From positions 12,740 through 76,739 of the forward strand of contig DASRSW010000076.1 in NCBI GenBank assembly GCA_035656275.1: a stretch of DNA of 64,000 nucleotides, read 5' to 3'. This document shows, piece after piece, positions 1 to 25,496 of the stretch. The notes beneath the pieces were generated by a model. It was not told where the DNA came from. It made no database searches and saw nothing but the letters and a program-made list of their open reading frames with translations. The position numbers and the translations under genes were made by a program. The first letter of the stretch is position 1. Each line of letters begins with the position of its first letter. The DNA is from Thermoplasmata archaeon. GTDB taxonomy: Archaea > Thermoplasmatota > Thermoplasmata > Lutacidiplasmatales > UBA184.

Positions 1-558
1 TATCGCGGAGAGCAGCCGATACGCTCCTCTATCGGGTTCGCTGGAGGGCACGTCGAGCCGGTACACTCGGTGGGGCCGGTTTGGAATGGCCCCGTTCCTA
101 AAGTATCGGAGTAGGGGCGACACCCACAACATGAAAAGGACCTGAAAGAACCGTCCCTCGACCTGGAGCGCCGCGTCCACCGATACGCCAGCCTGGTGAA
201 GTGAATTCATCCGATCTTCTCTTCCGACGAGGACGAGGGCGTGTATCCTCGCAATTTTGCGATCCTTGAATCGACCTACGGCAGTAGTCATGGTGTCTCC
301 TCGGTTCAAGACATCATCGATCAGTATGATGTTCTTCCCCGCAACGTCGGTTGTTTCGAGGAGCTGATCGATTGAGTGTCTTTCATAAGCCGTAAGCTCC
401 GATCGAATCTCGACCAATTCGTTGAGGAGCCCCATCCCCTTCTTCCCGATACCTACGAGTACTGTTTCCCGTCCAAAGACGGCCAGCTGTAGGATGAGCT
501 TCGATATCATGACCTCAACCAGACTCAACACGCGCTGAATATCCGCGGGAAACGGCAA
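1..558 (-). CDS. Phosphoribosyltransferase (PRTase)-domain protein; its 3' end runs off the left edge, so it is absent from the ORF track
   Basis: My own minus-strand translation gives ...RETVLVGIGKKGMGLL...DVAGKNIILIDDVLNRGDTMTTAVGRF..., where nt 339-289 match a type-I PRTase PRPP-binding loop. The frame stays open to nt 1, with an in-frame upstream stop at 739-741. Candidate starts are TTG 558, GTG 531 and ATG 510. Confidence 0.7.
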   Translation of the reverse strand, partial: MPFPADIQRVLSLVEVMISKLILQLAVFGRETVLVGIGKKGMGLLNELVEIRSELTAYERHSIDQLLETTDVAGKNIILIDDVLNRGDTMTTAVGRFKDRKIARIHALVLVGREDRMNSLHQAGVSVDAALQVEGRFFQVLFMLWVSPLLRYFRNGAIPNRPHRVYRLDVPSSEPDRGAYRLLSAI

Positions 559-825
559 TTTTCCAGAGAGGGCGACCCAGTTCCTCCACTGTCGAGGGTC
601 GTGGTTTGCCGAGTCGTCCTTCGAGCAGAGGTAACGTTCCGCAAACTGGTCGCGGAGCTTACGGCAATATTCGTGACCTTCGAATGGGCCGGTCGTACCG
701 GGACCAGGAGGGTTTGTTCTTAAGCACTTCCTGGTACGTTACAACATGTGCCACCTTACCGCCGCTCTTCCTCGAGAAGTCCCGCGAACCCTATGTCGGT
801 TCGTTTCTCGGGGCAAGCAAAGCGC

Positions 826-1746
826 TCACGAGGGAGGTGTGGTCAATGTGAGCACGGCTTCGCTCTCGGCCGCAGCCCTGAGATCGTGATCCTCATTGGT
901 CCAACCGTGATCGACTCGAACCCCTTCAATCTCGAGCTTTAGCCTGAATGCGACGCGATAGAGGTGAGCGGCAAACCGTGCAGCGGTCTCGTAGGACATG
1001 TTAGTTACCCCACTGCGTGAGGGCGCCGTCCCACCTAGTCGCGTTTCAGAGATTCCCTCGAACGCCCTGAACTTCTCCTCGATCGCTCCTGCGACTTCAG
1101 GGTCAAAGACCGGAAGCGCCATGCGCAGTTCGATCGAAATGTCCTCTGCCGATCTCTGGAACCGCTCGAATACCGCCACCACCGGATCCGCTGGCACCGT
1201 GCCCGGTGCACCCTGTCTTGTCACCAACTGTTCGCTCATTGTTGCCTCTGTGAGGCCATCCGACATCAGCATGTCGGAGACGAAGTTCTCCTCCGCCAAG
1301 ATTTCTGACATAAGCTTGATAACCGATTCAAGTGCGACTCCGACGGATTCCGCAATGCGTTCAAGCGGGATTCGTGCTCGCCGTTCCTGCGCACGCTGGT
1401 TAAGTTGGGGAAGCAGATTGTTGACTATGACGAGTGACAACGCAATCGTGACCAGTACCAGAGCGAACTCAGCGAGGAAACGCCACAAGTCGAGCTGGCC
1501 AGACTCGTAGACCGCAGCCAGGACGCCTACTGAAAGCAAGCCGAGTGCACCCGCGATACCGTAAACCCATCGCACGGAGTTCGCACTCTTTCGCTTGGAA
1601 GGAACTGGTGCAGTAACGAGCTTTAGCCGAAATCGGCCCATTTCTAAACTGATCTTCCAGTCTAGAAGTGGGATATTCATGATGACGGACTTCTCCGCGT
1701 CAAGCTCCCGTCGTCTGGAGTCGTGACACTGCGCCCTACCGTTCAC
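826..1746 (-). CDS. Hypothetical membrane protein (2 predicted TM helices plus a helical soluble C-terminal region), upstream of and co-oriented with the PRTase gene
   Basis: Track ORF of 306 aa. Hydrophobic segments are WVYGIAGALGLLSVGVLAAV and FALVLVTIALSLVIVNNLL. An alternative ATG lies at 1680. No recognisable catalytic motif. Confidence 0.6.
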   Translation of the reverse strand: MNGRAQCHDSRRRELDAEKSVIMNIPLLDWKISLEMGRFRLKLVTAPVPSKRKSANSVRWVYGIAGALGLLSVGVLAAVYESGQLDLWRFLAEFALVLVTIALSLVIVNNLLPQLNQRAQERRARIPLERIAESVGVALESVIKLMSEILAEENFVSDMLMSDGLTEATMSEQLVTRQGAPGTVPADPVVAVFERFQRSAEDISIELRMALPVFDPEVAGAIEEKFRAFEGISETRLGGTAPSRSGVTNMSYETAARFAAHLYRVAFRLKLEIEGVRVDHGWTNEDHDLRAAAESEAVLTLTTPPS

Positions 1747-2064
1747 TGCACTAGCGAATTGGCCCGCCTTAGCTCGAAGTCTCTGGAAGTATCAGCTTAC
1801 CGCCGGCCACCGCTTGGACAATAAGGTAAATAGCATACTGCGGTATGCGGGCATGCTGCGGCTTCTTAGAGCCAAGGGGCGAACTGCCATACTTAAGACT
1901 AAGCGGTCGACTCGAAGCGACGGGGCCCCCCACCTTAAGTACTTGGCACCATCCGGCTGTCGCAGCTTCAGTAGAGTTGATTAGACTTGGGTCTGACTTC
2001 AATACCTACGGGTCGTGTGGCGTTGTCGGACGTGAGTGAGGTGGAGGCTGTGGCCCAACCCGAG

Positions 2065-2373
2065 ATGGCAGTCCCAAACAGGCTCGAGCTTCTCTCGAAA
2101 GAGTTGATTGTCGCTCGAGCAATCTATGCGGCAAGGGTCGAGAAGGATCCTGAGCCGATGTACTTCAACCGCCTTGTGGGAATACTCGAGGAAAGAAAGC
2201 TCGCCTCTAGGGCAACAGTAAGCAAGTCGCTTGACATGCTCTTCGATCAGGGGATTGTCAAGGCTGACTGGCAGAAGCGGAAGGATGGCAAGTACGTACG
2301 GGCGCTCAAGATTGCCGGCGAGGCGCAGAGCTTCGTTGAGGCCATCTACTCCCACACCAGGTCAGACAAGTAG
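2065..2373 (+). CDS. Small winged-helix (wHTH) DNA-binding protein
   Basis: Track ORF 1987..2373, with the ATG at 2065 preferred. LASRATVSKSLDMLFDQGIVKADWQKRKDGKYVRALKI has a helix-turn-helix plus beta-wing pattern. Confidence 0.55.
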   Translation: MAVPNRLELLSKELIVARAIYAARVEKDPEPMYFNRLVGILEERKLASRATVSKSLDMLFDQGIVKADWQKRKDGKYVRALKIAGEAQSFVEAIYSHTRSDK

Positions 2374-2528
2374 TTCGCCCTCCCCTCCATCACCTAGCCG
2401 CTTCCCGCCCATTTTCGATTGCGAAGAACCTCAAGGAATGGACAGATTGGTAGGAGAGTCAACATTATATATCGGCGTATGATAATCATACTCGGGTGCG
2501 AGCATCATACTGCTCGTGGAAAGGTATC

Positions 2529-2696
2529 ATGGCGCAAAGGGACCAAGTCGACTGGAATGATGTGGCTCGAGGCGTCCTCAGCATCGCCAGCGGAGTCGTA
2601 ACGATCAGACAGGCGACCAAGCGGTGCCCGTGCGATGGCACTCCATTGCCGTTCAAGACATACTGTCCTGAATGCAATCACCTTCACATCCTATGA
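2529..2696 (+). CDS. Small putative zinc-ribbon protein (55 aa)
   Basis: Track ORF 2496..2696 with an internal ATG at 2529. The Cys pairs CPCDG...CPEC are present, and an AT-rich TTATATAT box lies at 2465-2472 upstream. Confidence 0.35.
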   Translation: MAQRDQVDWNDVARGVLSIASGVVTIRQATKRCPCDGTPLPFKTYCPECNHLHIL

Positions 2697-3070
2697 GAAG
2701 GCCGAGTGAGCCCCGCGACTCGGGGGGGTGTTCCGCCCCCTCCTCATCCTCGGCCAGTGCCAAACATCTGGTTGGCTGCCGTCACATTCCGGCCCTTGAA
2801 CCGAGGGACGATGCGTGGCAGCTAGTCCGTGCCGATCAAGCGCGGACCAGCTAGGACTGCCATGATTGGAGTGATGTCCGCGAGCGTGACGGACGTTTTC
2901 GCTCTGCCCCCCCGATCGGCGGGCGGGGAGCCGCTGGGACGCTACCGTGAAACCACGATAGGGATGGGCGAGGCTGGCGTCTATTTTACAGGGAATTTCG
3001 ATCCTCTCGTGCATCAACTCAAGCGTTGGTGGGACCGACCCCAGACTATCCTGCAACGGGGCCGGCGCAA

Positions 3071-4297
3071 ATGACTCGCAAGAGTCCTACAACCCCGCCC
3101 ATTTCACGAATCATTTCGATTCTCCTCATAGTCGTCACACTGATGGTGGCGTCGACATTCCTAGCGTTCAAAGATGCGTTTGAGATCCCTGAAGCCCCAC
3201 CTACAACAGCGATGACCCCGCACGGCCACCCCCTTGTTAGCGCATCGACGCCGTCGCCAAGAACTCCGTTCTGGAACAACACAACAGTCGAAGAGACTGA
3301 GACGTTCAACTTCGGTCCGCTTTCTTCCCCCTGGGGGTCGTTCGGTCTGACATACGCGTTTGGTGGAGTGATTCTGCTGACTGGCGGAGCCATCGATTCC
3401 GGAACTGAGCGAGGCGGCGAGGTCCGATTGGAGACTCCTGCCTATTCGCTGCTGAACATCACTGTCGCCTCTCACACTGTCTCGGTACCACTGCCAAACC
3501 TCCTTGGAATCGATCAGTCCCTCAATGTAGCCACCTTGGATCTCCAGTTGGAGGTTCCTTACTTGGGAATTCTCACACTGGCCTCCTTCTCCTTGTCGAT
3601 AGTGATTTCAGTAGTACTTGAGGCGACGAGCTCTGTGGTCGGCTGCGGGACGGGGGCGGGAGAGGTAATGTGGGACAGTAGCGGAGCGCGTCAGGTATCC
3701 ACGTGCGCTGCAGGACTCCACCCTGGAGAAATCGTCAGTTCCACGCTGAGTAATCTGAGATTCGCGCTTGCGGCCGGCGTTCAGGCGGAAGCAACTATTG
3801 CCGATGTGTTCACCGATACGATTCCTATTCTCCCATTGACCCCAATCATGAGTGTTGCCGCGCCAGTTTCATTGATTGACTCGAGCTACACGGTAGTTTC
3901 CCCGCCGAGTCACCTTCACTCCTATGTCACCCCTAACCCCGCAACCGATGGTGAGGCCGTCCAGCTCCTCTCAAGCGTTTCGGGAGGTGCGGGAGTAATT
4001 TCGTATTCGTATCTGGGAAGTCTTCCGGGATCGGGGTGCTCTGACGCTGGCCCGGGTGTGATAGCTTGCACCGCGACGGAGCAAGGTAACTTTTCGCTCC
4101 AAGTCGAAGCTACCGACCAACAGGGGGTGAGAACCCTAGGCTACGCGAACTATACGGAAACGGCACCTCCTGGCCCCGACTACAATGGGCTTTCAGGGTG
4201 GTCCACTCTCTCGGTGCTCCAGGCCGGCACCGGACTCCTGATGATCGTGATTGCAGTAGAGTTGGTAGTCATTCTCATCCAGGGGCGTCGGTCATAG
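3071..4297 (+). CDS. Membrane-anchored surface protein with one Cys-bracketed Ig-like (He_PIG-like) repeat and a C-terminal TM anchor
   Basis: Track ORF 3026..4297, with the ATG at 3071 preferred. The N-terminal TM is ISRIISILLIVVTLMVAS and the C-terminal TM is LLMIVIAVELVVILI followed by a basic tail. The repeat SGGAGVISYSYLGSLPGSGCSDAGPGVIACTATEQGNFSLQVEATD matches the repeats of 14307..17207. Confidence 0.75.
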   Translation: MTRKSPTTPPISRIISILLIVVTLMVASTFLAFKDAFEIPEAPPTTAMTPHGHPLVSASTPSPRTPFWNNTTVEETETFNFGPLSSPWGSFGLTYAFGGVILLTGGAIDSGTERGGEVRLETPAYSLLNITVASHTVSVPLPNLLGIDQSLNVATLDLQLEVPYLGILTLASFSLSIVISVVLEATSSVVGCGTGAGEVMWDSSGARQVSTCAAGLHPGEIVSSTLSNLRFALAAGVQAEATIADVFTDTIPILPLTPIMSVAAPVSLIDSSYTVVSPPSHLHSYVTPNPATDGEAVQLLSSVSGGAGVISYSYLGSLPGSGCSDAGPGVIACTATEQGNFSLQVEATDQQGVRTLGYANYTETAPPGPDYNGLSGWSTLSVLQAGTGLLMIVIAVELVVILIQGRRS

Positions 4298-4906
4298 AGG
4301 GTAGCCGCGAGCCACGCGATCCCCCAATGACGGCCCCTCGAGGAGGTCGCGGAGCTTCTCGTGGAGCGCCCGCAACGCGAGCACCTTCTGCTCGAGGTCC
4401 TCCAGGATGACGCGGTTCACGCGGGCGCGGAGTTGAGCCTCGGTCTCGCCGTTCGCGGCGTAGGAGGCGAACCCGCTGCGGGCGGACTCGAACTGGCCCG
4501 CGTTGAAGACGAGCTGGCCGGAGGCCCAGGCGCGGCCGGCCTCGGGCGACGGGGTGGCGTCCTCGTCGGCGTGGGCGATCTCGGGCGCGACGGTGGGAGG
4601 GCGCGGGAGTTCGCTCGCGGGGGTGAATCCTGGTACCTCGGCCAGCCTCACTTTCGGCTTGGCGGACGCTCCTCCGCGGTAGCTCCCGAAGTCGGGGGAG
4701 TGCTCGCGGAGGTAGGCGTGATAGGGGCGCTGCGCGCCGAAGTCCACGACGTAGCGGATCTCGGCGTCGCGGGGGATCGGGAAGCCGCAGCCACAAGAGC
4801 ACTTCCGGGGCCACCGGTTGCCGGTGACCGTGCGAAGGCGGGGGGCGTGGTCGGCAGTGGTCGGGGTTCTCTGCTCGGTCGCGGGCGCGGTGATGCTTTG
4901 CTGCAT
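4292..4906 (-). CDS. Family A hypothetical protein, copy 1 (TVTGNRWPRKCSCGC Cys motif plus C-terminal coiled coil)
   Basis: Track ORF 4292..4954. The ATG at 4906 (MQQSITAP...) gives 204 aa, the same length as the paralog at 25809..26423, and AGGTGA lies 4 nt upstream of it. Similarity to copy 2 is strong from PRLRTVTGNRWPRKCSCGC to LEQKVLALRALHEKLRD. Confidence 0.8.
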   Translation of the reverse strand: MQQSITAPATEQRTPTTADHAPRLRTVTGNRWPRKCSCGCGFPIPRDAEIRYVVDFGAQRPYHAYLREHSPDFGSYRGGASAKPKVRLAEVPGFTPASELPRPPTVAPEIAHADEDATPSPEAGRAWASGQLVFNAGQFESARSGFASYAANGETEAQLRARVNRVILEDLEQKVLALRALHEKLRDLLEGPSLGDRVARGYPL

Positions 4907-4940
4907 CGTTTCACCTCGCGAATGGCAGGTGAAACGATGC
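4903..4940. promoter_or_regulatory. Palindromic element, copy 1 (13/14-bp perfect arms, 10-nt spacer) embedding the SD and start codon of family A
   Basis: gCATCGTTTCACCT (4903-4916), cgcgaatggc, AGGTGAAACGATGc (4927-4940). CAT at 4904-4906 is the A1 start codon on the minus strand. Confidence 0.8.
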
Positions 4941-4989
4941 GGGGTTGGAACCAAGCAGCTTCATTCGCACCGGTCCCTTTCGGCAATCG

Positions 4990-5682
4990 ATGGCCGGTCC
5001 CCTCCCGTCCGACCGACGCGAGTTCGACCTCACCTCCGATGCGGCCGGGGAGTCGCGAGCTCAGCGCTCCTCAATCGGCTCCATCGTCTGGACGTACATC
5101 ATCGGAGCGGTCGCGATCGTCGCCCTCGGAGCGTTCACTCTCTCCGGGTCCATCGTCGGCACGGTCCTGGAGGGATGGGGCGCCATCATTGTCGGGGTCG
5201 GGATCATCGTCGTCGGGACGGTCTACGTCAAGTTCTACCTAGGGAAGAACGAGGTGATCCGCCTCGGCGTGGACAGCGACGGGCTCCGGTTCACATGGAC
5301 GAAGGGCACCACGACCACCTTCGCGTGGTCCGACCCGCGGCTGAAGGTCGACCTATGCCACCTCGAGGGGAACCCGAACGACGTTCTGCCCGCAGATGAC
5401 CCTCGGAGTCGGCGACCGTGGTGGATCGACGCCTGGAAGCCTGCGGGGAGCACCATCGCTGTAGAAACCACGCTACCCGAGGACGCATACCGCGCCCTCC
5501 TCGCGGAGGTCTCTCTCAGGGTACCCGGAGTTCAATCCGTTCCTGCGGCCTACTTCTGTTGGGAGCCGAGCCCCCGTGTTCCTGGCGAGCTGCACCACCG
5601 GAGTGGTTCTAAGCTAAAGCCGGGGGAGTCGACGAATGGCACCCTGACGCGAGTCCGGGGAACGGCCGTGATTGAAAGCTAG
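4990..5682 (+). CDS. Family B hypothetical 2-TM membrane protein with a beta-rich C-terminal domain, copy 1
   Basis: Track ORF 4945..5682. The ATG at 4990 (MAGPLPSDRREFDL) aligns with the copy-2 start MSEPLPSDRLEFDL. TM helices are IVWTYIIGAVAIVALGAFTL and WGAIIVGVGIIVVGTVYV. It is a 230-aa paralog of 26506..27198. Confidence 0.8.
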   Translation: MAGPLPSDRREFDLTSDAAGESRAQRSSIGSIVWTYIIGAVAIVALGAFTLSGSIVGTVLEGWGAIIVGVGIIVVGTVYVKFYLGKNEVIRLGVDSDGLRFTWTKGTTTTFAWSDPRLKVDLCHLEGNPNDVLPADDPRSRRPWWIDAWKPAGSTIAVETTLPEDAYRALLAEVSLRVPGVQSVPAAYFCWEPSPRVPGELHHRSGSKLKPGESTNGTLTRVRGTAVIES

Positions 5683-5930
5683 CACTGTTGCCTCCCGACG
5701 GTCGCGATCTGTGTAGTAAGCGGCCGGCGCATGGAGTTCGCCCTCAGCGCGCTGGGGGCTCTGCTGCATCGCACGTTCCTCGAGAGGGAGGGAACGGGCG
5801 ATGCGTGAACGCCGAATCAGCGACCTCGAGGCTTTCAGTAGGCCGTCAACGCGGGTTGTTAGCCTGATTCGAGGACACCCAGCGCTCGGAGCAATAGATT
5901 AGGCCCCTCAGGCGTAGGGCCGCTAACTCT

Positions 5931-6758
5931 GTGCCAGCGAGTCTAGAGGAAGGCTGGGTCAGGGCGACTGCCCTCATCCAGAACGAAGCAGGGGAGCTTG
6001 GAACCGGATTCTTCGTGGCGCGGAAAGTGGATGAAGCTTCTCTCCGCCTCTTCTTAATCACCAACAAGCACGTTCTAGCTGATACTCGGAAACACAGAGA
6101 TGGGGCCCGCCAGATTGAACTCAATCTGAACCTACGGAAAGACGGCAAGATTGTTGGGACCAAGGCGATCCTCCCCTTGCGTCTTGCGGACGGAAACGCC
6201 ATCTGGCGCGAGCACGAGGACCCTGACGTTGACGTGCTCGCAATCGACGTCACCGCAGTCAAGGTTCAGGTGGTCGACATGGACGTCAAGTGGGCCGGCT
6301 ACGACGGCTTCGCCGATCCGCAGAAGATCGTTGACCACGAGATTACTATGGCTGACGAGGTGATTGCGCTCGGGTACCCACTCGGCCTCAAACAAGGAGA
6401 TACCTTCCTGCCGATCGCGAAATCAGGGATTCTCGCCTCCAAGATTGGAGAGCGAGTTTCCGACACTGTTCAGACCTCAGGTGGGGAACTGCACCACCGA
6501 AACATGCCGGCATTCTTGGTCGACGGCGCGTTCATACCAGGCTCAAGTGGGAGTCCAGTGATCCTTAAACCCATGGTCGGAAGGGTCGTGAGGCGTAACA
6601 TAGTCCTCTCTCCCGCTCCATCCCTGCTTCTTGGAATCATTTCTGAGACCAAGTATGTTCCAGTTAGCACACTCCACGGAGAGAGGCTCGCCCTTCCCGG
6701 AATTGCACTCGCCTTCGACGTGTCGACGATAATAGATGTAATCGAATCCTTCTTTTGA
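5931..6758 (+). CDS. Trypsin-like (chymotrypsin-fold) serine peptidase
   Basis: Track ORF of 275 aa with a GTG start. The catalytic triad context is TNKHVL (His), DVDVLAID (Asp) and IPGSSGSPVI (Ser). No signal peptide is evident. Confidence 0.8.
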   Translation: MPASLEEGWVRATALIQNEAGELGTGFFVARKVDEASLRLFLITNKHVLADTRKHRDGARQIELNLNLRKDGKIVGTKAILPLRLADGNAIWREHEDPDVDVLAIDVTAVKVQVVDMDVKWAGYDGFADPQKIVDHEITMADEVIALGYPLGLKQGDTFLPIAKSGILASKIGERVSDTVQTSGGELHHRNMPAFLVDGAFIPGSSGSPVILKPMVGRVVRRNIVLSPAPSLLLGIISETKYVPVSTLHGERLALPGIALAFDVSTIIDVIESFF

Positions 6759-6785
6759 TTCCTGAAGACACGATTTCAGAAGTCG

Positions 6786-6965
6786 TCACCGAAGTAGACC
6801 ATGAGAAGATCGATTCAAACTCGCCGTGAAACGCCAAGCGGGCACGCTTGTCCCTCGTGCGTCGATAACTCTGGGGGTCCATTGATTACCAGTGACGGAG
6901 GGGAAGCGTGGGGCGGTGCGCGTGGGCGGCTCGGGCCTCGCGGATTCGATGATGCTGGAGGGCAT
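6786..6965 (-). pseudogene. Truncated, diverged family A copy (59 codons, below the ORF-track cutoff)
   Basis: My own translation is MPSSIIESARPEPPTRTAPRFPSVTGNQWTPRVIDARGTSVPAWRFTASLNRSSHGLLR*. The first 8 aa and ~33 nt of the 5' end are identical to copy 2 (25809..26423). The VTGNQW motif is retained and the CSCGC motif is lost. Confidence 0.5.
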
Positions 6966-6998
6966 CGTTTCCCCTCGCGAAGGGCAGGTGAAACGAGG
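6963..6998. promoter_or_regulatory. Palindromic element, copy 2 (degenerate)
   Basis: CATCGTTTCCCCT, cgcgaagggc, AGGTGAAACGAGG. It has the same 13+10+13 layout with 2-3 arm mismatches. Confidence 0.6.
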
Positions 6999-7132
6999 CA
7001 GTAGACCGCGTTGAGTTCAGAGGAAGCCCCATCCGAGGGCGTCTAGTGGTCCGGTCCCTTGCGTTCAGAAGAGTTCTTGACTCAAGGTGGGTACTGCGCT
7101 TGCGTGGGTGAATCAGCTTACAGCAGAAATGA

Positions 7133-7996
7133 CTACTGCTCGCCAAACCAGGCATCAATCAGTCTGGTCACGTCCTCAAGAACGGCGGTCGCTTGGATGA
7201 TCGTGAGATCGAACGAACCGGAATGAACCGCCATTATCCTCTGGGCGTTGGTCCCGTGCAGTGACTTGTAGAACCCTAGCGAGACCGACGACTGGATGTC
7301 TTCGGCAACCACACGCTCCGCCAGCAGTTCTCCGAGTGTCCGTTTTCTCGCAGCCCAATCCGAAACCGGCCATCCCTTCCTGACCCCTCTCAGAAAGATA
7401 GCTGCCTCCGCGGCTTTGGCAATCACCGCTACTGAGGCGTTGGGAAGCCCGGCGATAAGGGAGTCTCGCCCTTCCTCGTATGCCCTGAACAAGTTCTGCC
7501 CCTCTCGGTCCTGACGGAGAAGGGTTCGAGTGAGCTGGCCAATCTCAGGTAACGGAAGTGCCTGAGGAGACTGTCTCATTGTGACTACGAAGGGCGTCTC
7601 CTGGGCGTATCCGTCGTTCACCAGCCACTTTGCGACCTTCGGCCTGAGTCCAATCCACGTCCCTCCCCAATGGACGCCTGACTCATCGGTCCAGTCAATC
7701 ATGAAGTCCACCGTGAACGCCTCCGCGAGCTTAGCCGGCTCACGGAAGATGAGCAACCCCTTCCCGTCTCCTTGAGTCGAAGTCGAGACCTCCCATTCCC
7801 CTGGAGGTGAGTGAAGTCGGGCCCGGACTATCGCGCGGCCGTATCGATCACCGAACCGGTTCCCGACCTGGACGGGGATTTGGAGCATCAGCGAGAGTAG
7901 GGTGACCCTAGGCTTGTTCCTTGCGTGGAGGTTAGCGGCCCGTAGGCGGCCCTTTCGCGTAAGGAGGGGGGCAAACGGGAGGGGTTCGGCACGCAA
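7133..7996 (-). CDS. Hypothetical protein with a C-terminal HEPN-like helical domain (Rx4H motif)
   Basis: Track ORF of 287 aa with a TTG start; an alternative ATG lies at 7888. The C-terminal helical region contains ...SLHGTNAQRIMAVHSGSFDLTIIQATAVLEDVTRLIDAWF, with R253-x4-H258 at nt 7240-7223. The N-terminal half is beta-rich and of unknown fold. Confidence 0.6.
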   Translation of the reverse strand: MRAEPLPFAPLLTRKGRLRAANLHARNKPRVTLLSLMLQIPVQVGNRFGDRYGRAIVRARLHSPPGEWEVSTSTQGDGKGLLIFREPAKLAEAFTVDFMIDWTDESGVHWGGTWIGLRPKVAKWLVNDGYAQETPFVVTMRQSPQALPLPEIGQLTRTLLRQDREGQNLFRAYEEGRDSLIAGLPNASVAVIAKAAEAAIFLRGVRKGWPVSDWAARKRTLGELLAERVVAEDIQSSVSLGFYKSLHGTNAQRIMAVHSGSFDLTIIQATAVLEDVTRLIDAWFGEQ

Positions 7997-8148
7997 GATT
8001 TCGGTGCGCGATCACACTTCCTCGTGAAGGGGAAAACGGGCGATACTTTTAACTGCCGGTGGGGCGACATGTGGCTTGCAGTCCTTCCAGAATGGCTGGA
8101 ACCGGCCCGACGAGGATTCTTACGGTACGACGCCCTTGAAGCGGCCCA

Positions 8149-11656: not shown

Positions 11657-11946
11657 GCACTGCGGCTGCCTTCTGGCGCGGCAGCTCGGGACCCGGATCC
11701 AAAGCTGCCGAAGGCAGGAGTTCCAACTGAACGCCGGTATTTAGCCATTGGTTTGAACTCTAAACAGTGGCACCTAGGTGGGATCGCGGGCTGATTCGCT
11801 GCTCAGAGTCTCACCGGTGGAAGAGGACGTTGAGTGTGTAGGGCGGAGTACAGTGCTCTGCGGCCACTATAGGAACGCTGGTCCGCAGTTAAGAACAGGG
11901 GAGAAAGTCTCATGGGTTGGCTCGCCATTCGGACCTCGGGGGCAGA

Positions 11947-14310
11947 ATGGTCACCCCTCTTCGCGAGCTCATAGCGTGGGCCGCCTGCCTTGCCGTTCTC
12001 TCGACAGGCCTGCTCGATTCCGCAATGGGATCGAATGTGCCTCTCGCGACGGAGGATTCGGGCCCGGCGGCCCTACTTAACCAAGGGTCGAATCCCTCTC
12101 CCGCCCAAGGCCCGGATTCGGTCCATCTAAGCTGTTCCTCGAATCCTGACGCCGTCAGTCGATGTGGGCTAGGCCCGCAGGCGAACTCGGCTGGAGGGAC
12201 TCAGGGGGCCGGGTGGCTGAACATATCGGCCCGCGTCGGAACTCCCCCGACCCCGCGGAGCTTTGGACGGAGCATCGCCTACGATCCCCGCGACGGGTAT
12301 GTGGTGATGTTCGGCGGTGACGCACCTACGGGCGGGTATCTTTCCGACACGTGGGCGTTCAGCAACGGCAGCTGGAAGGAACTCACCACGAATGCGTCTC
12401 CCCCCGCTCGCGACCACTCTACCCTAGCGTGGGACCCTGTGGACCAGTACCTCGTCCTCTTCGGGGGCTCCGGAAGCGTGGTTTACAACGATACCTGGGC
12501 ATTCGCGAGGGGCGAATGGACCCAATTGCACCCTCCCGCGGCCCCTTCTCCGCGATGGTCCGCCGGAATGGTGTGGGATGCACGGGACGGGACGATTCTA
12601 CTGTTCGGAGGTTGCGCCGCGGGCTCCGAGCAAAACGATACCTGGTCGTTTCTCCATGGGAACTGGACCGAACTCTCCCCGACGACGTCGCCATCGCCCC
12701 GGGGTGATTCGGGAATGGCCTACGACGCGGTCGACAGTCAGGTCGTGTTGTTTGGGGGACTGAGCGCGAATTGGGGGGCACTGGATAACGACACTTGGGC
12801 CTACTCCGCCGGTACCTGGACCGAAATCAGTTCCCCGGGTTCCCCTCCCGCCCGGTATGACCCTTCGATGGCATTCGACACAGCGATTGGCCAAGTTGTG
12901 CTCTTCGGTGGTGAAGGAGCCCTCGCTAGCCTCGGGGATACTTGGGGGTACGCCAACAATCGTTGGGTTGGCCTCTCGGAGTCGAACGTACCGGCCTCGC
13001 GGTCCTTTGGGATGTTGGTGTACGACCCGGACCTGGATGGCCTCCTGCTCTACGGAGGGGCCACGGTGGGCTCCGGGACTTCTACTGAGACTTGGGAATT
13101 CTACACCCTGAACCTCACGGCTCGAGTTTCCTCCCCATCCGAAGTTGCACCAGAATCGTTGGATGCCACCGCGAATTCGACGGGAGGGGTGAATCCGATC
13201 GCGTATCTCTGGCGGTTTGGTGACGGGGGCTCCTCCAACCTCTCCTCGGCCACCCACGCGTATCTCGAGCCTGGAACCTACCAGGCCACGATCACATCAA
13301 GCGATTATTTCGGTGTGACGAGTGAGCGGAGTTTTACGGTCATCGTCCTGCCCCTGTTGGTGGTACGTGCGGGAATTACCCCGTCCTTCGGCTCTGTTCC
13401 CCTAGCGGTATCCTACTACGCCGTAGCCAGCGGGGGGATCCCGCCTTACCAATACAACTGGACCTTGGGCATCGACTCTTGGTCGAACGCCTCGAATGGC
13501 AATGTAACGTACCCGTCGGCCGGCGACACTATCGTCACACTGAGTGTGCGCGACTCGGGGGGCCAAGCGCTCCAGAAGGAGTTCGTACTCGTCGCTCTCG
13601 CACCCACTCCGACCAACCTCTCGGTCTCCATCCTGGCGTCCCGTTCGACCTGCGACGTTCCCTGCGCTTTGACCTTCACGGCGACGGTTGGGGGAGGAGT
13701 CGGACCCGAAACGTATGCATGGGGGTTCGGCGACGGCGCTGGGTCCTCGGCTCCGGCACCTTCGCACCAATTCCTCTCGGCTGGAAACTATACGGTCGCG
13801 CTCGAAGTGCACGACAGTGCGACCGGCGTCGGGCTTTCCAATGTCTCGATTAGTGTGAACCCGTCGCTAACAGTGATTCCGCACGCTTCCGTACTTGTGG
13901 GCCCGACTCCTCTCCTCGTGACGTTCACGTCGAACGTGGGCGGTGGGGCTGGCCCTTACCGAGTAGCCTGGACATTCGGCGATTCGAGTTCCCTCGAATC
14001 GAGCGGAAGCCAGCACACCTATACTTTTCCCGGAACCTACACTGTGAGGCTCAGCGCGGTCGATTCGACCGGGACGGAGGCGAACGGCACCCTCGAGATC
14101 GTAGCGCTACCGACTGCGACAAGTGTTGGAGAAGCGGGGATGGGCGGGAGTCTTCTCACCCTGGCCATTCCAGTCTCGATCGCTATTGCCGGCGGGGAGG
14201 TGGCTCTCGGACTGCTGCTGAGTAAAGTCCCCAAGAAGCCCATGGGGGCGTCGGCCGCCCAGCCGGGCCAAGCACCCCGACAGGGCGATTCCAGTTCTCG
14301 CCGAGAATGA
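11947..14310 (+). CDS. Kelch-repeat beta-propeller plus ~4 PKD domains; surface protein with a C-terminal TM anchor
   Basis: Track ORF 11917..14310, with the ATG at 11947 giving the signal-like sequence MVTPLRELIAWAACLAVLS. About six blades carry FGG...DTW motifs. PKD signatures include WRFGDGGSS...HAYLEPGTY, WGFGDGAGS...HQFLSAGNY and WTFGDSSS...HTYTFPGTY. The C-terminal TM is LAIPVSIAIAGGEVALGLLL. Confidence 0.9.
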   Translation: MVTPLRELIAWAACLAVLSTGLLDSAMGSNVPLATEDSGPAALLNQGSNPSPAQGPDSVHLSCSSNPDAVSRCGLGPQANSAGGTQGAGWLNISARVGTPPTPRSFGRSIAYDPRDGYVVMFGGDAPTGGYLSDTWAFSNGSWKELTTNASPPARDHSTLAWDPVDQYLVLFGGSGSVVYNDTWAFARGEWTQLHPPAAPSPRWSAGMVWDARDGTILLFGGCAAGSEQNDTWSFLHGNWTELSPTTSPSPRGDSGMAYDAVDSQVVLFGGLSANWGALDNDTWAYSAGTWTEISSPGSPPARYDPSMAFDTAIGQVVLFGGEGALASLGDTWGYANNRWVGLSESNVPASRSFGMLVYDPDLDGLLLYGGATVGSGTSTETWEFYTLNLTARVSSPSEVAPESLDATANSTGGVNPIAYLWRFGDGGSSNLSSATHAYLEPGTYQATITSSDYFGVTSERSFTVIVLPLLVVRAGITPSFGSVPLAVSYYAVASGGIPPYQYNWTLGIDSWSNASNGNVTYPSAGDTIVTLSVRDSGGQALQKEFVLVALAPTPTNLSVSILASRSTCDVPCALTFTATVGGGVGPETYAWGFGDGAGSSAPAPSHQFLSAGNYTVALEVHDSATGVGLSNVSISVNPSLTVIPHASVLVGPTPLLVTFTSNVGGGAGPYRVAWTFGDSSSLESSGSQHTYTFPGTYTVRLSAVDSTGTEANGTLEIVALPTATSVGEAGMGGSLLTLAIPVSIAIAGGEVALGLLLSKVPKKPMGASAAQPGQAPRQGDSSSRRE

Positions 14311-17207
14311 CCGAGTGGATCTGGGGGTCGGTGATGAACCGGGCAGGGTCTCAATCCCACCCGACCTCTTCTGGGATTGGAATGCGTCGACGCTTCGCAC
14401 CAAGCACCGTGGTGCGCACATGCTTTACGATCGCCATTTCAGTCTCTCTGCTTGGACTTTCTCCCCCGTCGGTGGCATCGGCGATTACTTCTCTGACTGT
14501 CGCACCTGGAGCCGAGAGTCCCTTAGGCTCAGGCACGACCCTCGGAGGGGTCGCCGAACTACTTCCCCTGCCCTTGATCCATTCCTCCTCATCCGAAGGT
14601 CTTCACTCGAGCTGGGGTTCCCATTCTACCATCGTAGGAAGATCGGCCCCCCCGCTCAATCAACTTCCCCGGCTCGCCCCAGCTGCGAATCTCACGCTGG
14701 GGTGGGTCAACCTGACATCTACTGACGGTTCTCCTCCTCCCTCAACTTACGGGGCAAGCATGGCGTACGACCCCCTCCTCCCGGGAACTGTGTTGTTCGG
14801 AGGTGAGGTCGATGGGCTTCCCACGAATGTCACTTGGATTTCCGCGAATCTTTCGTGGACTCACCAATCGTACGCCCCCGGCCCCTCACCTCGGTCCGGT
14901 GCCCAATTCTCATACGATCCGGGGACGGGCTCATTGATCCTGTTCGGCGGGTGGGATGGAACGCGTTATCTCAACGATACCTGGTCGTTCTCGGGACGGG
15001 GATGGGCCAATCTCACTCCAGCGTTGTCGACGACCCCCCCCGCGAGGGCCAACGGCTCGCTGGCGTTCGACTCGCGCGATAGTGTATTGGTTCTCTTCGG
15101 GGGGTGTGGGTCCACCTGCCCATTGGGCGACACCTGGCTGTTCAACGAGACAGGGTGGTCCAGTTGTTGCTCAACATTTGGACCCGGGCCGAGGTCAAGC
15201 GCCGGCCTGACCTTCTACGCCGCCAACAACGAACTGACCCTCTTCGGCGGCTGTTCCGGACGGGCGGGACTCAACGACACGTGGGCCTTCTCTGCTGGCA
15301 ATTGGGCTCAGATCACTCTCGCGGGAGGACCTCCGCCTTCGTGTCCAGCCGTATTGGCGCGAACCGCGACTCCGGGTTTCGATGGGCTCGGCCTCCGATC
15401 GGGGGGGGAGACCTGGGTGTTGAATTCCTATTCTTGGTTCAACCTTACAGCGCAAACGGTTCTGACGCCGCCGAGCTCGAGCTCTTGCGACTTCGCACCA
15501 TCCGACGTGCAAACCCTAGACCTTTTGGTGTGCCCTGACGCCGGACTCAATTCGACCTCCCTTGTCTGGAGCCTGGGCGTCCCGATCATTCTGACGGTGG
15601 CTGTTACGCCCGTCAGATTGGATGTGAATCAATCCGTTAGTTTCAATATGTCCGGTCTCTCCGATGACTACCCACTCACCTTCGAGTATCTCGGTCTCCC
15701 CCGCGGTTGCTCCACTGTTAACTCGTCGGCATTGGACTGCACTCCAACCGGGTCCGGGCAGTTCGTGATTACCATCGTCGCTAGCGACGAGGTGGGACAG
15801 AGTGAGAGAGCGCTCGCCAGTCTTCAGGTAAATGATGCGCTCCGAGTTGAAGCACTACGAGTCGGCACCGGCAACCTAACGGTAGGAACGAATCTATCGG
15901 TCGACACTCTCTTCCGAGGGGGCACTCCGGGACTGAATTTCTCGTACGATGGCCTTCCCCCCGGCTGCCCGTACACGAACGCGTCTGCGTTTACCTGCCG
16001 CCCGAATGTAAGCGGAGTCTACGACCTGCGAGTCCTTGTGAGAGACGCCGCCGGTGAAGCGGGAACCGCGGAAAGGGTGATACAAGTCGACTCTGCCCTC
16101 TCTGCCCTTTCCTTTTCGGCGGTTCCGTCGACGCTCGACATAGGAGAATTGACGAGGCTGACCCTCTCGTCTGCGGGGGGTACCCCACCTCTGCAGTACA
16201 GTTACTCAGGGTTACCGGAGCCCTGCACCACGCTTAGCACTCCGGTGCTCTCTTGCCTTCCGTATCAGGCCGGGATCTTCCCGATCCAAGTGTCGGCCGA
16301 AGATTCCTCGGGCGCTACTCTCACTTCCGTTGTCCAACTCCAAGTGAACCCCGACCTAGGTGGATTGGTTCTTCTTCCTAGTTCCTCAACCGTCGAGCTG
16401 GGACAATCGCTTCAATTCGAGGCGCGATTTTCCGGAGGAACCACGCCGGTTACCCTAACGTTCCAGGGCATACCGGGATGTGTTGGGGCGGGGGACCTGA
16501 ATTTCAGCTGTCGTCCATCGGTGGCGGGCTGGTTCTCCGAACGGCTGACGGTCCGTGATTCGACGGGGGCGAGCCTCGCGACCTTGGCCGTGGTTGACGT
16601 GATTCCATCCCTCCAGGCGGAGTCGCTTTCGGCCGAACCCTATCCCGTGGAACAAGGTAGGAGCACGATCTTCTCGATAGGAGTCGTCGGGGGGGTTCCC
16701 CCCTTCGTTACTCGCGCGACGGGCCTCCCCCTTGCATGCGCGCCCGCCCCGAATGTGAGTTCTTGGACCTGCACCCCGCCCGAGCCGGGGGAGTTCCCCA
16801 CCGTTCTCGAGGTGACGGATGGGGCCGGAGTCCAAGTGAACTCGACCTTCTCCCTCAGTGTCCTTGACTCACTTAAGGTGCGGCTCATCGCCCTCCCCAT
16901 GCCCCCGTACTCCAGTGAAGTCGAGCTCTCCGCCTCCATCTCCGGCGGATCCGGTCCCTTCACGTACGAGTACCTTGGACTGCCTCCGGGGTGCTCCGCA
17001 CCGTCCGCTGGGAAGGTTTACTGCAATTCCGATGCACCCGGTGAGTATCACGTCGAAGTTGACGTGACGGACTCGATCGATGGCGTGAACAGTTCCGCCA
17101 CGGAGGTATCCGTGGGTCCCGGTCTTGGGGCCGTGACTTTGCCGGCAGTCCTCGTGGCAGCGGGAGGCGCTTTCGGAATTTGCGTATTGGCCCGGGGTCG
17201 ACGCTAG
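14307..17207 (+). CDS. Kelch-repeat propeller plus ~7 Cys-bracketed Ig-like (He_PIG-like) repeats; surface protein with a C-terminal TM anchor
   Basis: Track ORF of 966 aa. An ATGA overlap joins its start to the upstream stop (14307-14310). The repeats follow SGG.P..Y.Y.GLPPGC....L.C.P...G.Y...V.V.D. The C-terminal TM is LPAVLVAAGGAFGICVLA followed by RGRR. Confidence 0.9.
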   Translation: MTEWIWGSVMNRAGSQSHPTSSGIGMRRRFAPSTVVRTCFTIAISVSLLGLSPPSVASAITSLTVAPGAESPLGSGTTLGGVAELLPLPLIHSSSSEGLHSSWGSHSTIVGRSAPPLNQLPRLAPAANLTLGWVNLTSTDGSPPPSTYGASMAYDPLLPGTVLFGGEVDGLPTNVTWISANLSWTHQSYAPGPSPRSGAQFSYDPGTGSLILFGGWDGTRYLNDTWSFSGRGWANLTPALSTTPPARANGSLAFDSRDSVLVLFGGCGSTCPLGDTWLFNETGWSSCCSTFGPGPRSSAGLTFYAANNELTLFGGCSGRAGLNDTWAFSAGNWAQITLAGGPPPSCPAVLARTATPGFDGLGLRSGGETWVLNSYSWFNLTAQTVLTPPSSSSCDFAPSDVQTLDLLVCPDAGLNSTSLVWSLGVPIILTVAVTPVRLDVNQSVSFNMSGLSDDYPLTFEYLGLPRGCSTVNSSALDCTPTGSGQFVITIVASDEVGQSERALASLQVNDALRVEALRVGTGNLTVGTNLSVDTLFRGGTPGLNFSYDGLPPGCPYTNASAFTCRPNVSGVYDLRVLVRDAAGEAGTAERVIQVDSALSALSFSAVPSTLDIGELTRLTLSSAGGTPPLQYSYSGLPEPCTTLSTPVLSCLPYQAGIFPIQVSAEDSSGATLTSVVQLQVNPDLGGLVLLPSSSTVELGQSLQFEARFSGGTTPVTLTFQGIPGCVGAGDLNFSCRPSVAGWFSERLTVRDSTGASLATLAVVDVIPSLQAESLSAEPYPVEQGRSTIFSIGVVGGVPPFVTRATGLPLACAPAPNVSSWTCTPPEPGEFPTVLEVTDGAGVQVNSTFSLSVLDSLKVRLIALPMPPYSSEVELSASISGGSGPFTYEYLGLPPGCSAPSAGKVYCNSDAPGEYHVEVDVTDSIDGVNSSATEVSVGPGLGAVTLPAVLVAAGGAFGICVLARGRR

Positions 17208-17325
17208 TCGACAGCCCAAGTGCCATAGGCCTTGAGTCGCGTGATTGGGACGGAGCCGCCCAGATGCGGGGCCCGCCGACGAATCGGTCCTCTACCTTGC
17301 CGGGCGAAAGCAGGCATCCGGACCG

Positions 17326-19644: not shown

Positions 19645-19646
19645 TC

Positions 19647-21890: not shown

Positions 21891-21923
21891 GACCGGCCCC
21901 CTTTCAAAGAAGGCCGGGGTTCA

Positions 21924-24900: not shown

Positions 24901-25496
24901 TGACGAGCGGACGGGCAGTTTCCCGCATGCGCACAGTTCAGGGCAGTCGTGACGTTCCACCACGTCCCGGCGACCTCGTTGTACTGCCAGGTATCACCGA
25001 AGACGTCACCGGTCGAATTCGCCCCTCCAAATAGCAGTGCCCCCTCGACGGTTCCATTCATGAAGAGGGCGATCGCGGCCCCAAACCGTGCTGCTGGGGA
25101 TTGCAAGTGCGGGAACACAGGAGGAGGCGGCCCGACCAACGGATGAGGGGAAGTGCGCGGCACGCTCGCGGAAGAACAACTCATCCCGCCGCCGGAAGAA
25201 GAGCAGGTCATCGGGAGACCAGCGGCGGGACCTTCGCCTCGGCCAAGGGAGGATATCGCCTGTGCCATCAATGTGGTGCCGGGGCGCGCAGCGGAGCCGA
25301 GAACAAGGTGAGACTGTGCCGACGCGTGACCAACCGAGGGCGGAATCGCTCCGGCGGGAACGCAGAGCAGCGTAACGATAAGTACCGACCCTAACGCCCC
25401 GGCGAGAGTAGTCCGAACCCTGCGCCGCCAGCTCGACCACCCAACCTGCCTGGCCCTGCTCGTCCCGTCAACCGCGGCCTCCCCCTTCGCCCGCAT
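21924..25496 (-). CDS. Giant multi-propeller Kelch-repeat protein (~18 blades), with an N-terminal anchor and no PKD, Ig or C-terminal anchor
   Basis: Track ORF 21924..25640, with the ATG at 25496 preferred because it precedes RRRVRTTLAGALGSVLIVTLLCV. The [GNSAH]DTW[xFY] blade motif recurs about 18 times (GDTWQY, QDTWYY, NDTWYW, HDTWEL, KDTWTF, ADTWGY, SDTWLF, GDTWRF and others). Confidence 0.9.
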   Translation of the reverse strand: MRAKGEAAVDGTSRARQVGWSSWRRRVRTTLAGALGSVLIVTLLCVPAGAIPPSVGHASAQSHLVLGSAARPGTTLMAQAISSLGRGEGPAAGLPMTCSSSGGGMSCSSASVPRTSPHPLVGPPPPVFPHLQSPAARFGAAIALFMNGTVEGALLFGGANSTGDVFGDTWQYNEVAGTWWNVTTALNCAHAGNCPSARHDASMVYDSEDSYTLLFGGCTVSPPGWIQSVPGCDSTASHMKQDTWYYTDPAALVGTWTNVNPATKPAVRYAAGLADDKGDGYVLLFGGCGTTCPYQQTWKYLAGVWTQLTPSPQPAGRYGMAMAYAQIVVSPALPVPTAQVSSGTAVVLLFGGCSSGSGGCPNGALNDTWYWTAGAWAQLLSATSCSAGPGICPSPRYYPGGTSYFYNTVTTDYGLLIYGGAGPDGTILGNATDVHGGDWWIYPTLAGANGWQQLMAPPGYVAFINGFFRPSPAAPIPPRYDTSLVGISGGEVMFGGSADTGLSIGDTWLASHSPNRAFAGELWPPPLPSARYGATMTRDFNDKTDVLFGGCGSSCGNASTWDFAAYRPTYMWVSNTPLLTAANSPSSRMNASMTNITPSGGTDSVVLFGGLSTSGTLLNDLWSYAAGVWTPQTPTGAGPPSARQGATFAYDETDGYAVLFGGCGAATCPLHDTWELTGSPAAGYIWAAGPTSGPPGRYGAAMTWDERDSYILLYGGCGTTCPLKDTWTFVGGVWTQCLTASCTTAPPAARWGSTMSFDEVDNEAVLFGGCGSTCPYADTWGYAAGNWYKITPTTSPPGRYDAVSTYDLDGQYVLMFGGVGPAIKLMGEFGWGFYAGNWYPAPILNQIPKSPAPAPRYGASLAANSAGNTVLLVGGCQNTIIGPCGPLSGQSDTWLFTNGGWREFCAGCGPGPRWDAGLSFDPVDGYFVLFGGCKAVVVVCVPPLTLADTWTFNGATWTQLAIAGPSARSDVGMTWDVVDSRVILFGGFGCTGAAAPACGDTWSFITGAWTFVTTPTAPTARFGPAMTFDLTDAYVVLYGGQGAGGVVFGDTWRFTLSTGWVQVSASGPLAPRYDAAIAFDLTDGIVILFGGATVGGIPLGDTWRYHVGIWTGAPTTWAPPAEWGMGMAFDQNAGPNGYVTLFGGSAATGYYAPGAPAPGAIGTGNGGSWLYFNTPNPNGKPYWNDSSMYV

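Follow-up and report, generated by a model that had tools for sequence, protein, structure and literature searches.

Genes and features at the locus

The locus described here lies in a stretch of 64,000 nts (the window) of contig DASRSW010000076.1 (assembly GCA_035656275.1), in which two adjacent and divergently oriented genes, A and B, are found twice (A1 with B1 and A2 with B2). The four encoded proteins are identical to the hypothetical proteins VFG07_08940 (A1), VFG07_08945, VFG07_09005 and VFG07_09010 of a metagenome-assembled genome (MAG) recorded as 'Thermoplasmata archaeon' and, because the host is an archaeon, bacterial promoter logic is not applicable to them. An initial annotation had proposed that A and B constitute a functional unit with its own palindromic leader. 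Comparison with related loci leads us to favour, with slightly better than even confidence, a different reading, in which B is cargo that occupies the first slot of an insertion array delimited by hairpins and anchored on A, and the adjacency of the two genes reflects the assembly of the island and not a joint function. The principal features are the following.

4292-4906, minus strand: gene A1, 204 aa, with a leader peptide (residues 1-22), a Cys/His mini-domain (23-72), a variable linker, an invariant motif (124-150) and a long helix (156-189)
4904-4939, minus strand: A1 stem-loop, perfect 13-bp arms (CATCGTTTCACCT-N10-AGGTGAAACGATG) and a 10-nt loop; the 3′ arm contains GAGGTGA, similar to a Shine-Dalgarno (SD) sequence, and the A1 ATG; predicted folding free energy (dG) -26 kcal/mol
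4990-5682, plus strand: gene B1, 230 aa, two transmembrane (TM) helices and a beta-rich domain that is possibly PH-like; occupies the first slot upstream of A1, antisense to the array
25809-26423, minus strand: gene A2, 204 aa, paralogue of A1
26421-26456, minus strand: A2 stem-loop, same arm type as A1 with one mismatch, overlapping the A2 start codon
26506-27198, plus strand: gene B2, 230 aa, paralogous to B1; occupies the first slot upstream of A2

The coordinates and lengths of both pairs, as well as the intergenic spacers of 83 nts (pair 1) and 82 nts (pair 2), are as initially annotated. The A proteins are 81% identical (E 1e-115) and the B proteins 73% identical (E 2e-125), and the dN/dS ratios (NG86) of 0.25 for the A pair and 0.18 for the B pair demonstrate purifying selection, hence all four genes are maintained. 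The duplicated A-B layout is real and far beyond chance. A tract of about 90 nts with a single mismatch, reported earlier between A1 and A2, was recovered with a shift of 1 nt in register and extends over 93 nts (4497-4589 versus 26023-26115, at most one mismatch). Together with a synonymous divergence that is higher for B (dS 1.1) than for A (dS 0.46), this near-identical tract suggests that gene conversion homogenises the A copies.

A stem-loop over the start codon of A

The conserved palindromic leader of the initial annotation does lie over the A start codons, but it belongs to A and not to the pair, since essentially every A homologue is preceded by a stem of 13-14 bp whose 3′ arm ends in the start codon. 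Among 43 unique leaders, 42 fold with a predicted dG of -18 to -36 kcal/mol, with both the AUG and a GAGG located 8-9 nts upstream being paired; the 43rd, from locus L006, is the 3′ end of a group II intron. The palindrome has the form GCATCG-N8...N8-CGATGC, with a loop ending in CGCGA, and a search of Rfam 15 gave no match at the hairpins (window positions 4200-7200, E<=1). Across about 40 loci, stem positions 7-12 and 14 display double compensatory changes between the stem types, which include the following.

5′ arm GCTCGTTCC, 3′ arm GGAACGAGC
5′ arm GCCCGTCCC, 3′ arm GGGACGTGC
5′ arm GTTTCACCT, 3′ arm AGGTGAAAC
5′ arm GTGTCACC, 3′ arm GGTGACAC
5′ arm GCTTCCCCT, 3′ arm AGGTGAAGC
5′ arm GGATTCCC, 3′ arm GGGAATCC

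In two loci with distant A homologues (L051:40-134 and L054:4905-5004), the AUG of the hairpin opens a separate upstream open reading frame (uORF) of 21-22 codons, which is homologous to the A leader and whose stop codon overlaps the start of the main open reading frame (ORF; MRLRT...) as ATGA. In A1 and A2, the leader is fused in frame to the main ORF. A further gene, C, which usually follows A and is described below, is preceded by GGAGG-like motifs at positions -12 to -5, indicating that this lineage uses SD sequences. Taken together with the order hairpin-uORF-ATGA in L051 and L054, these motifs favour a role of the stem-loop in translation. In the mechanism that we propose, the hairpin would be part of the A mRNA, in which it would pair the GAGG and the AUG. 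Initiation at the paired AUG would be blocked by default until the helix is melted by a terminating upstream ribosome, a helicase or a protein, and the regulated step would be the initiation of the leader or of the uORF.

An unannotated family with the conserved C-terminus ...YE(D/E)LLEFLE... was observed in three genomes (L003:~3100-3280, L005:5641-6270 and L028:5468-5968), in which the gene ends 8-10 nts before one of the degenerate upstream hairpin copies discussed below. Judging from this spacing, a ribosome terminating at the end of such a gene would reach into the 5′ arm of the hairpin.

The stem-loop is also the site of another type of element. A palindrome found in L006, L007 and L035 was first taken as a second, independent hairpin type; this was ruled out, as it corresponds to the 3′ end of a group II intron. 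The intron (Rfam RF02003 for D1-D4 and RF00029 for D5-D6, with a reverse transcriptase/maturase ORF matching RVT_1 and GIIM) is located at L007:5443-7487 and L006:~5956-8000. Its insertion point is immediately behind the ATG located at the hairpin's 3′ base and, in L006, falls between codons 1 and 2 of a full-length A gene. Class IIC introns are known to sit after inverted repeats (PMC1702495), and this habit, together with the position of the intron exactly after the hairpin ATG, suggests that the stem-loop is recognisable as a structure; it has no bearing on the question of the A-B pair.

Genes A and C form a conserved block

A word-index search retrieved at least 471 homologues of A, none of them named, of ~205-215 aa and 64-83% identity. 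Clustering at 50% among 1.84 billion proteins gave 201 representatives, many of which are fragments. The 45 loci carrying the family, with up to six per genome (one genome being considered per species), all belong to Thermoplasmata MAGs, including those of UBA184 and UBA61, the former being a member of the TMEG/Lutacidiplasmatales order (PMC9287336). As far as these sequences go, the family, which has no annotation, is restricted to Thermoplasmata of soil and peat, each genome having 2 to 6 or more copies.

The alignment of the family consists of a variable leader of 22 residues, a near-invariant mini-domain (RLRTVTGNRFPRKCxCGCG...RYVVDF...YLREHSPD), a variable Pro-rich linker, an invariant stretch (GRxWASGQLVFNAGxFESARSGFAxY) and a long helix. 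The mini-domain contains an invariant CxCxC...H motif (C36-x-C38-x-C40...H69), with no Cys past the His, of which the distant homologues retain only C36, C40 and H69. Some of these distant homologues also carry a C-terminal extension of ~150 aa with no family match. The credible parts of the AF2 model of A are a three-strand sheet (residues 23-66, pLDDT ~70-77) and the helix of residues 156-189 (pLDDT ~87-92). Searched with Foldseek, this model returned only PARP-type zinc fingers with E 1.2-7, which is a mere hint; A lacks the CX2CX28-30HX2C ligands of zf-PARP and has no Pfam match to it.

No usable match was found for A1 and A2 in Pfam, NCBIfam, PADLOC, PHROGs, PDB sequences or IMG/VR, in agreement with the initial statement that the protein cannot be assigned to a known family; a PHROG match with E 0.018 on the coiled coil of A2 was judged to be due to chance. 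Long A homologues and the neighbouring genes in the window showed no integrase or recombinase domain, and the invariant columns of A contain no His-hydrophobic-His (HUH) motif, nor does A match Y1_Tnp. It had also been proposed that A is a zinc-binding, dimerising protein. The CxCxC...H motif and the confidently modelled C-terminal helix stand behind this proposal, and make metal binding and oligomerisation plausible, although both are unproven. Our guess is that A could be a small protein that binds metal and nucleic acid, oligomerises and belongs to a regulatory, selfish or toxin-antitoxin-like module, a guess drawn solely from gene order, copy number, island context and tight translational gating.

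The constant partner of A in most loci is gene C, a conserved ORF of ~84 aa located 18-30 nts downstream of A in about 40 of 47 loci (for example L014:8651-8905; other examples lie within L003-L047), with the consensus MFEFRLRILDV...GFPEVLVHA.S..QAE.DL..AL. Four of the 11 C proteins compared with UPF0150 (PF21748) have a HicB-N-like match below threshold, the best with E 0.0094. The alignment of C with E. coli HicB by hhalign had a probability of 1.2% and thus lent no support, and comparison with PDB sequence profiles yielded chance-level matches only. In pairwise blastn comparisons, conservation extends from positions -40 to -31 relative to the ATG of A to ~30 nts before the C stop codon, with unrelated flanks on both sides. 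The canonical unit, as delimited by these alignments, is a sharp-edged block of ~900 bp comprising the stem-loop, A and C.

No copy of C was found anywhere in the window, and the closest A relatives, in L048 and L050, are also devoid of it; the A subclade of the window has lost C. The genes that are found downstream of A1 and A2 are the following.

3026-4297, plus strand: gene for a 423-aa membrane-anchored protein, convergent with A1 and overlapping its stop by 6 nts; 90% identical to a syntenic L048 gene; it occupies the place that is otherwise that of C
21924-25640, minus strand (the strand of A2): Kelch-repeat gene, 1238 aa, directly downstream of A2, with no C there

More generally, five large genes for surface proteins with Kelch and/or PKD repeats (747-1238 aa), located at 11917-25640, take up most of the interval that separates the two A-B units.

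The GC content at third codon positions (GC3) is 0.82-0.90 for A, 0.72-0.85 for C and 0.77-0.79 for B, compared with 0.60-0.70 for neighbouring genes, and the identities of different A segments are nearly uncorrelated between loci (Spearman 0-0.3). Both properties are compatible with frequent, possibly GC-biased, gene conversion of A. The segment-wise correlations are uniformly low and are thus uninformative as to whether breakpoints concentrate at the hairpin specifically.

Gene family B and its association with A

A word-index search with B returned only the two proteins of the window. Local profile work on the 45 loci revealed a divergent family of ~190-230 aa, characterised by an N-terminal (F/Y)DL(S/T) motif, two TM helices, a G(I/L)xFxY...W.DP...L.DY core and a C-terminal helix. 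A hidden Markov model (HMM) built without B1 and B2 matches both of them (E 2.6e-10 and 2e-9), hence the homology within the family is real. The profile search iterated at E 1e-4 did not expand the family, and a search with the family alignment found just seven members among 5.8e9 proteins, from which B is, on these searches, a sparse or fast-evolving family.

As for A, no match was found for B1 and B2 in Pfam, NCBIfam, PADLOC, PHROGs or PDB sequences. The initial description of B as a membrane protein with a PH-like domain is supported by the two TM helices, which are followed in the AF2 model (pLDDT 64, pTM 0.58) by a domain of about seven strands and a helix. The likeness to PH domains itself comes from weak Foldseek neighbours, all with E >= 0.2 and mostly of PH/PTB folds, among them the bacterial PH protein 3b77 at E 0.81; nothing below E 0.05 was found in PDB or BFVD, and PF03703 (bPH_2) did not match B1, B2 or seven other members of the family at E<=1. 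The 'PH-like' label is reasonable for the modelled fold but unproven. The TM hairpin of several members (residues 33-80 of B1 and 20-79 of B2, and the L001 and L044 members) gives recurrent sub-threshold matches to Phage_holin_3_6 (Holin-X) with E 0.02-0.6, which probably reflect a generic resemblance between TM hairpins. Upstream of the B1 and B2 start codons, at a distance of ~24-32 nts, lie the conserved boxes TTCATTCGC (4959-4966) and TTACATTCGC (26474-26482), also written TTCATTC/TTACATTC. Speculatively, B could be transcribed without a leader or with a short one, and the boxes may serve as its TATA-like elements.

The claim that A and B form a functional unit was not borne out by their co-occurrence. 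Among 42 full-length A genes, only three have a B-family gene divergently upstream, namely the two of the window and that of L044. Unrelated small membrane proteins with 1-2 TM helices are encoded at the corresponding position in L005, L014 and L020, and the remaining A genes have other neighbours there. B-family genes are also found co-directional behind degenerate hairpin copies in L005 and probably L001, at a distance of kilobases from A in L008, L027, L029 and L039, and, in L052, on a contig where neither A nor C nor a hairpin is within reach. The small number of B neighbours of A, the presence of an AbiEii gene at the corresponding position in L048 (see below), the occurrence of B without A in L052 and the role of C as the usual partner leave an A-B unit largely unsupported. 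B is best described as one recurrent kind of cargo.

Arrays of relic hairpins upstream of A

Three degenerate copies in which the hairpin is joined to the 5′ end of A, at 5767-5803, 6963-6998 and 27403-27438, had been missed by the initial annotation. They were detected along with similar copies in other loci by searching around the anchor A genes with an nhmmer profile composed of the hairpin and 18 nts of the leader. Among the extra copies, 52 are co-oriented with A and located upstream of it, compared with a single downstream copy and none on the opposite strand; counted by locus, the bias is 30 versus 1. In the window, all nhmmer copies are on the minus strand, at 4944, 5806, 6999 and, weakly, 8044 for the A1 array, and at 26456, 27443 and, weakly, 29446 for the A2 array. 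The two arrays contain the following features in addition to A, B and their hairpins.

5767-5803, minus strand: relic hairpin of a different arm type (CATCGCCCGTTCC...GGAACGTGCGATG), the type found before the orthologous A in L048; its best match, 94% over 50 nts, is a solo hairpin of L048
5614-5769, minus strand: leader remnant following this relic (MQQS..., 51 codons); similarity to A is lost after ~16 codons; overlaps the 3′ end of B1 in antisense
5931-6758, plus strand: trypsin-like peptidase gene (PF13365, E 1.3e-8), cargo of the second slot
6876-6998, minus strand: relic hairpin (6963-6998, two stem mismatches) and a degenerate A N-terminal remnant without the Cys motif
7133-7996, minus strand, as A1: ORF of 287 aa in the third slot, no family match
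8011-8044, minus strand: possibly an older relic hairpin, weakly supported (nhmmer score 15.8, E 0.0075)
27244-27438, minus strand: relic hairpin (27403-27438, ATG changed to ACG) and a pseudogenised A fragment (residues ~1-51 and beyond), ending near the B2 stop
29421-29446, minus strand: possibly an older relic hairpin, weakly supported (nhmmer score 18.0, E 0.0015)

The upstream A fragments always keep the 5′ end of the gene and are cut at a variable position on the 3′ side, from residue ~16 to residue ~185. Out of 14 stem positions, 12.8 are paired on average before a full-length A, 12.4 before A fragments and 11.4 where A homology is gone. Since stem pairing falls as A homology is lost, we interpret the extra copies as decaying relics and not as maintained sites.

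The genes located between relics are unrelated to each other, have a lower GC3 (0.60-0.70 versus 0.82-0.90 for A) and occur on both strands. They encode small membrane proteins, AbiEii, DNA methylases, a HATPase protein, NHL, Kelch and PKD proteins and a trypsin-like peptidase, and further include a DUF7718/HTH pair, IS66, group II introns and a large serine recombinase. The last of these, a protein of 699 aa with Resolvase, Recombinase, Zn_ribbon_recom and HTH_17 domains, is encoded between two relic hairpins at L016:2128-4227 on the minus strand, and is a candidate integrase for at least one inserted element.

A proposed recombination junction at the 5′ end of A

The clearest view of how such arrays may arise comes from L048, a Logan contig of 23 kb with an A orthologue (P0002) that is 83% identical. 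Window positions 1-4908 align with L048 at 91% nucleotide identity, the downstream gene products being 90% identical, and the alignment stops 2 nts before the A1 ATG. Upstream of this point, L048 has its own hairpin, of the type GCCCGTTCC, which is preceded by AbiEii and other genes; the AbiEii nucleotidyltransferase toxin gene (L048:4582-5484) ends 3-4 nts before the hairpin of the orthologous A, at the position of B1. The window has instead a hairpin of the GTTTCACCT type, then B1, then a relic of the L048 type at 5803 with a foreign leader remnant, and the A1 hairpin now carries the arm type of A2. This arrangement is the product expected if the chromosome had recombined by a single crossover, at or beside the 3′ edge of the hairpin, with a circle that brought in B together with a leader remnant and a hairpin of its own. 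A further but weaker example is a block common to L004 and L015, which ends at the 5′ edge of an upstream relic hairpin. The pattern of a recurrent recombination junction at the hairpin and the 5′ end of A is shown by these comparisons, with the mechanism being inferred from them.

We propose that a circle or a segment with its own hairpin would insert by a Campbell-type single crossover at the hairpin and 5′ end of A. After each insertion, A would be intact on the downstream side, and the upstream side would retain a truncated copy of the hairpin and leader, so that repeated insertion would produce a polar, co-oriented array of slowly decaying relic hairpins between unrelated cargo genes. The agent of the crossover could be homologous recombination, a hairpin-induced break, a recombinase borne by the element or A itself. 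B1 and B2 would then be cargo in the slot proximal to A, one type of cassette having entered two arrays of the same genome, and B would probably be expressed from its own promoter in the ~50-nt spacer.

Alternative explanations

That A and B are a dedicated divergent two-gene system, either a regulator with a membrane effector or a toxin-antitoxin-like pair, with the palindrome as operator of a bidirectional promoter, would explain why the same layout is found twice with both genes under purifying selection. It would also fit the order of L044, in which A, a hairpin of a different type and a very divergent B-family gene are arranged independently in the same way, and the other small proteins with 1-2 TM helices encoded divergently upstream of A in L005, L014 and L020. 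However, such a system is improbable in view of the B-family neighbour in only three of 42 A genes, of the AbiEii gene in the place of B at the orthologous A of L048, and of B-family genes that occur in either orientation, kilobases away or, in L052, without A. In addition, the constant partner of A is C, and the dS of B (1.1) exceeds twice that of A (0.46), implying either that the genes do not share a duplication history or that A was homogenised. The palindrome could also act at the DNA level, as an operator at which a dimer (of A, C or a host factor) binds to autoregulate A, the overlap with the start codon being incidental to the geometry of the promoter. The near-perfect dyad symmetry with conserved outer half-sites (GCATCG and CGATGC), mismatches that are not enriched in G.U, and the predicted coiled coil and Cys/His mini-domain of A, with its faint likeness to PARP-type zinc fingers (E above 1), are consistent with this explanation. 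Against it, the pairs of the inner stem change in a compensatory manner, although the putative binding domain of A is nearly invariant, the 3′ arm always has GAGG at SD distance and ends exactly at the AUG, and the coupling of hairpin, AUG, uORF and ATGA in distant homologues makes sense for translation only. We therefore regard an operator as possible but rather doubtful.

The arrays themselves could have formed with no site-directed insertion, by tandem duplication of hairpin-A(-C) followed by deletions and homologous recombination or gene conversion, with B merely located between decayed copies. Near-full-length extra A copies and a split A-C in L019, L032 and L037, the 93-nt near-identical tract of A1 and A2, the almost uncorrelated A segment identities and the very high GC3, consistent with biased gene conversion, all agree with such a history. 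Random decay nevertheless predicts 3′ fragments, C relics upstream and relics downstream, whereas a 52:1 bias with preserved 5′ ends is observed; the cargo between relics is unrelated, foreign-looking and lower in GC3; and the L048-window breakpoint lies a few nucleotides from the 3′ edge of the hairpin, with hairpin types swapped as whole units. Duplication without site-directed insertion is thus a tentative option, which we place on a par with the operator. A more radical possibility is that A, alone or with C, is a new structure-specific recombinase that captures cassettes at its own 5′ hairpin, in an archaeal integron-like system devoid of a tyrosine integrase. A(-C) is the sole conserved coding content and always lies at one end of a polar, co-oriented array, one breakpoint falls at the edge of the hairpin, A has invariant Ser, Tyr, Arg and His residues without an assigned role, and the hairpin doubles as a homing site for group II introns, in line with the known insertion of class IIC introns after inverted repeats (PMC1702495). 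This is unlikely, as A has no similarity to any recombinase, HUH or DDE family, the cargo is found in both orientations, unlike integron cassettes, the relic hairpins decay and are not maintained, one array has its own large serine recombinase and the subclade of the window lacks C. The boldest form of the idea, in which the hairpin-A(-C) block would be the engine of an unrecognised archaeal cassette capture, with A directing the insertion of hairpin-bearing circles and the same stem-loop silencing A translation, is held to be similarly improbable.

Several observations weigh against our preferred reading of B as cargo in an array anchored on A, whose start-codon hairpin would gate translation. 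Stem mismatches show no excess of G.U (6 G.U versus 18 A.C and 40 other), which would be predicted for an RNA helix; this leaves open a DNA-level role for the palindrome, the G.U test not being decisive. An AT-rich (TATA-like) promoter peak was sought upstream of the hairpin and none was found. The score of the relics follows distance from A as a weak trend (15 versus 8 adjacent pairs), and a breakpoint exactly at the hairpin was obtained in just one clean comparison of close relatives. In about 6-10 of 42 loci, the gene next to A on its upstream side is divergent and encodes a small membrane protein. Three of these genes are of the B family, that of L044 being an independent case, so that some functional link between A and such genes is conceivable. 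Finally, the overall model of A is poor (pLDDT 59.7) and nothing supports a specific biochemical activity.

Significance and comparison with known systems

The results reveal an unannotated, lineage-wide A family with a conserved start-codon hairpin, and arrays of relics that mark the entry of new genes. The soil and peat Thermoplasmata (TMEG/Lutacidiplasmatales-like) are uncultured, and to our knowledge nothing has been reported on the assembly of their variable islands, on which this locus bears; the two close relatives that differ exactly at the hairpin offer a clean example. Should the junction prove site-specific, it would represent a platform for integration or cassettes that is new to Archaea, and would help in practice to locate genes acquired recently in these MAGs. 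Translational gating by the hairpin, if confirmed, would add an uncommon, comparatively well-supported archaeal example of SD/AUG sequestration with a coupled leader ORF. The locus is also a warning for annotation, since duplicated neighbouring genes are not necessarily a functional module.

Stem-loops that sequester the SD sequence at the 5′ end of selfish genes include those of IS200 tnpA, the fold-back inhibition of IS10 and the hok-type toxin mRNAs with coupled leader ORFs. The A hairpin resembles them by a stable helix over the ribosome-binding site and start codon of a multicopy island gene and by a coupled leader ORF in distant homologues. It differs by its archaeal host, by the absence of an evident antisense RNA and by the unrelated protein that it precedes, and it is known here from sequence alone. 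Similarly, A-C is reminiscent of hicAB-like operons, with a small protein encoded 18-30 nts downstream that has a weak UPF0150-like similarity, with multiple copies and with a location in defence and mobile regions. However, A has no PF07927 domain, as in HicA, and no Pfam or NCBIfam match at E<=1 beyond noise, the similarity of C to UPF0150 is below threshold, and A1 and A2 lack C yet are under purifying selection. In its predicted structure, B resembles the bPH_2 proteins (PF03703, YdbS/YdbT type; PDB 3b77) in the order of its elements, with a pair of TM helices at the N-terminus and then about seven strands and a helix, but has no Pfam match at E<=1, an extra C-terminal beta region and the N-terminal (F/Y)DL(S/T) motif.

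The arrays have two close counterparts. Like islands that target tRNA or tmRNA genes and carry tandem relic att repeats, they have an intact anchor gene at one end, truncated direct repeats on one side only and unrelated cargo (defence, toxin-antitoxin and surface genes) between the repeats. In contrast to these islands, the anchor is the 5′ end of a protein gene with a stem-loop over its start codon and not the 3′ end of a tRNA, and the slots are mostly of 0.5-2.5 kb and usually without an integrase. Like integrons, they form a polar array of imperfect palindromes in one orientation, between single or few genes and beside one constant gene, with group II introns inserting at the palindromes. 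Unlike integrons, they have no IntI tyrosine recombinase, the only recombinase, a serine one, being held by the L016 array; the palindrome has neither the R''/L'' boxes nor the extrahelical bases of attC, the cargo lies in both orientations, and the upstream copies carry pieces of the anchor gene and decay. We place the hairpin-A(-C) arrays with the known integration hotspots and cassette arrays, and give a small probability to A belonging to a new recombination system.

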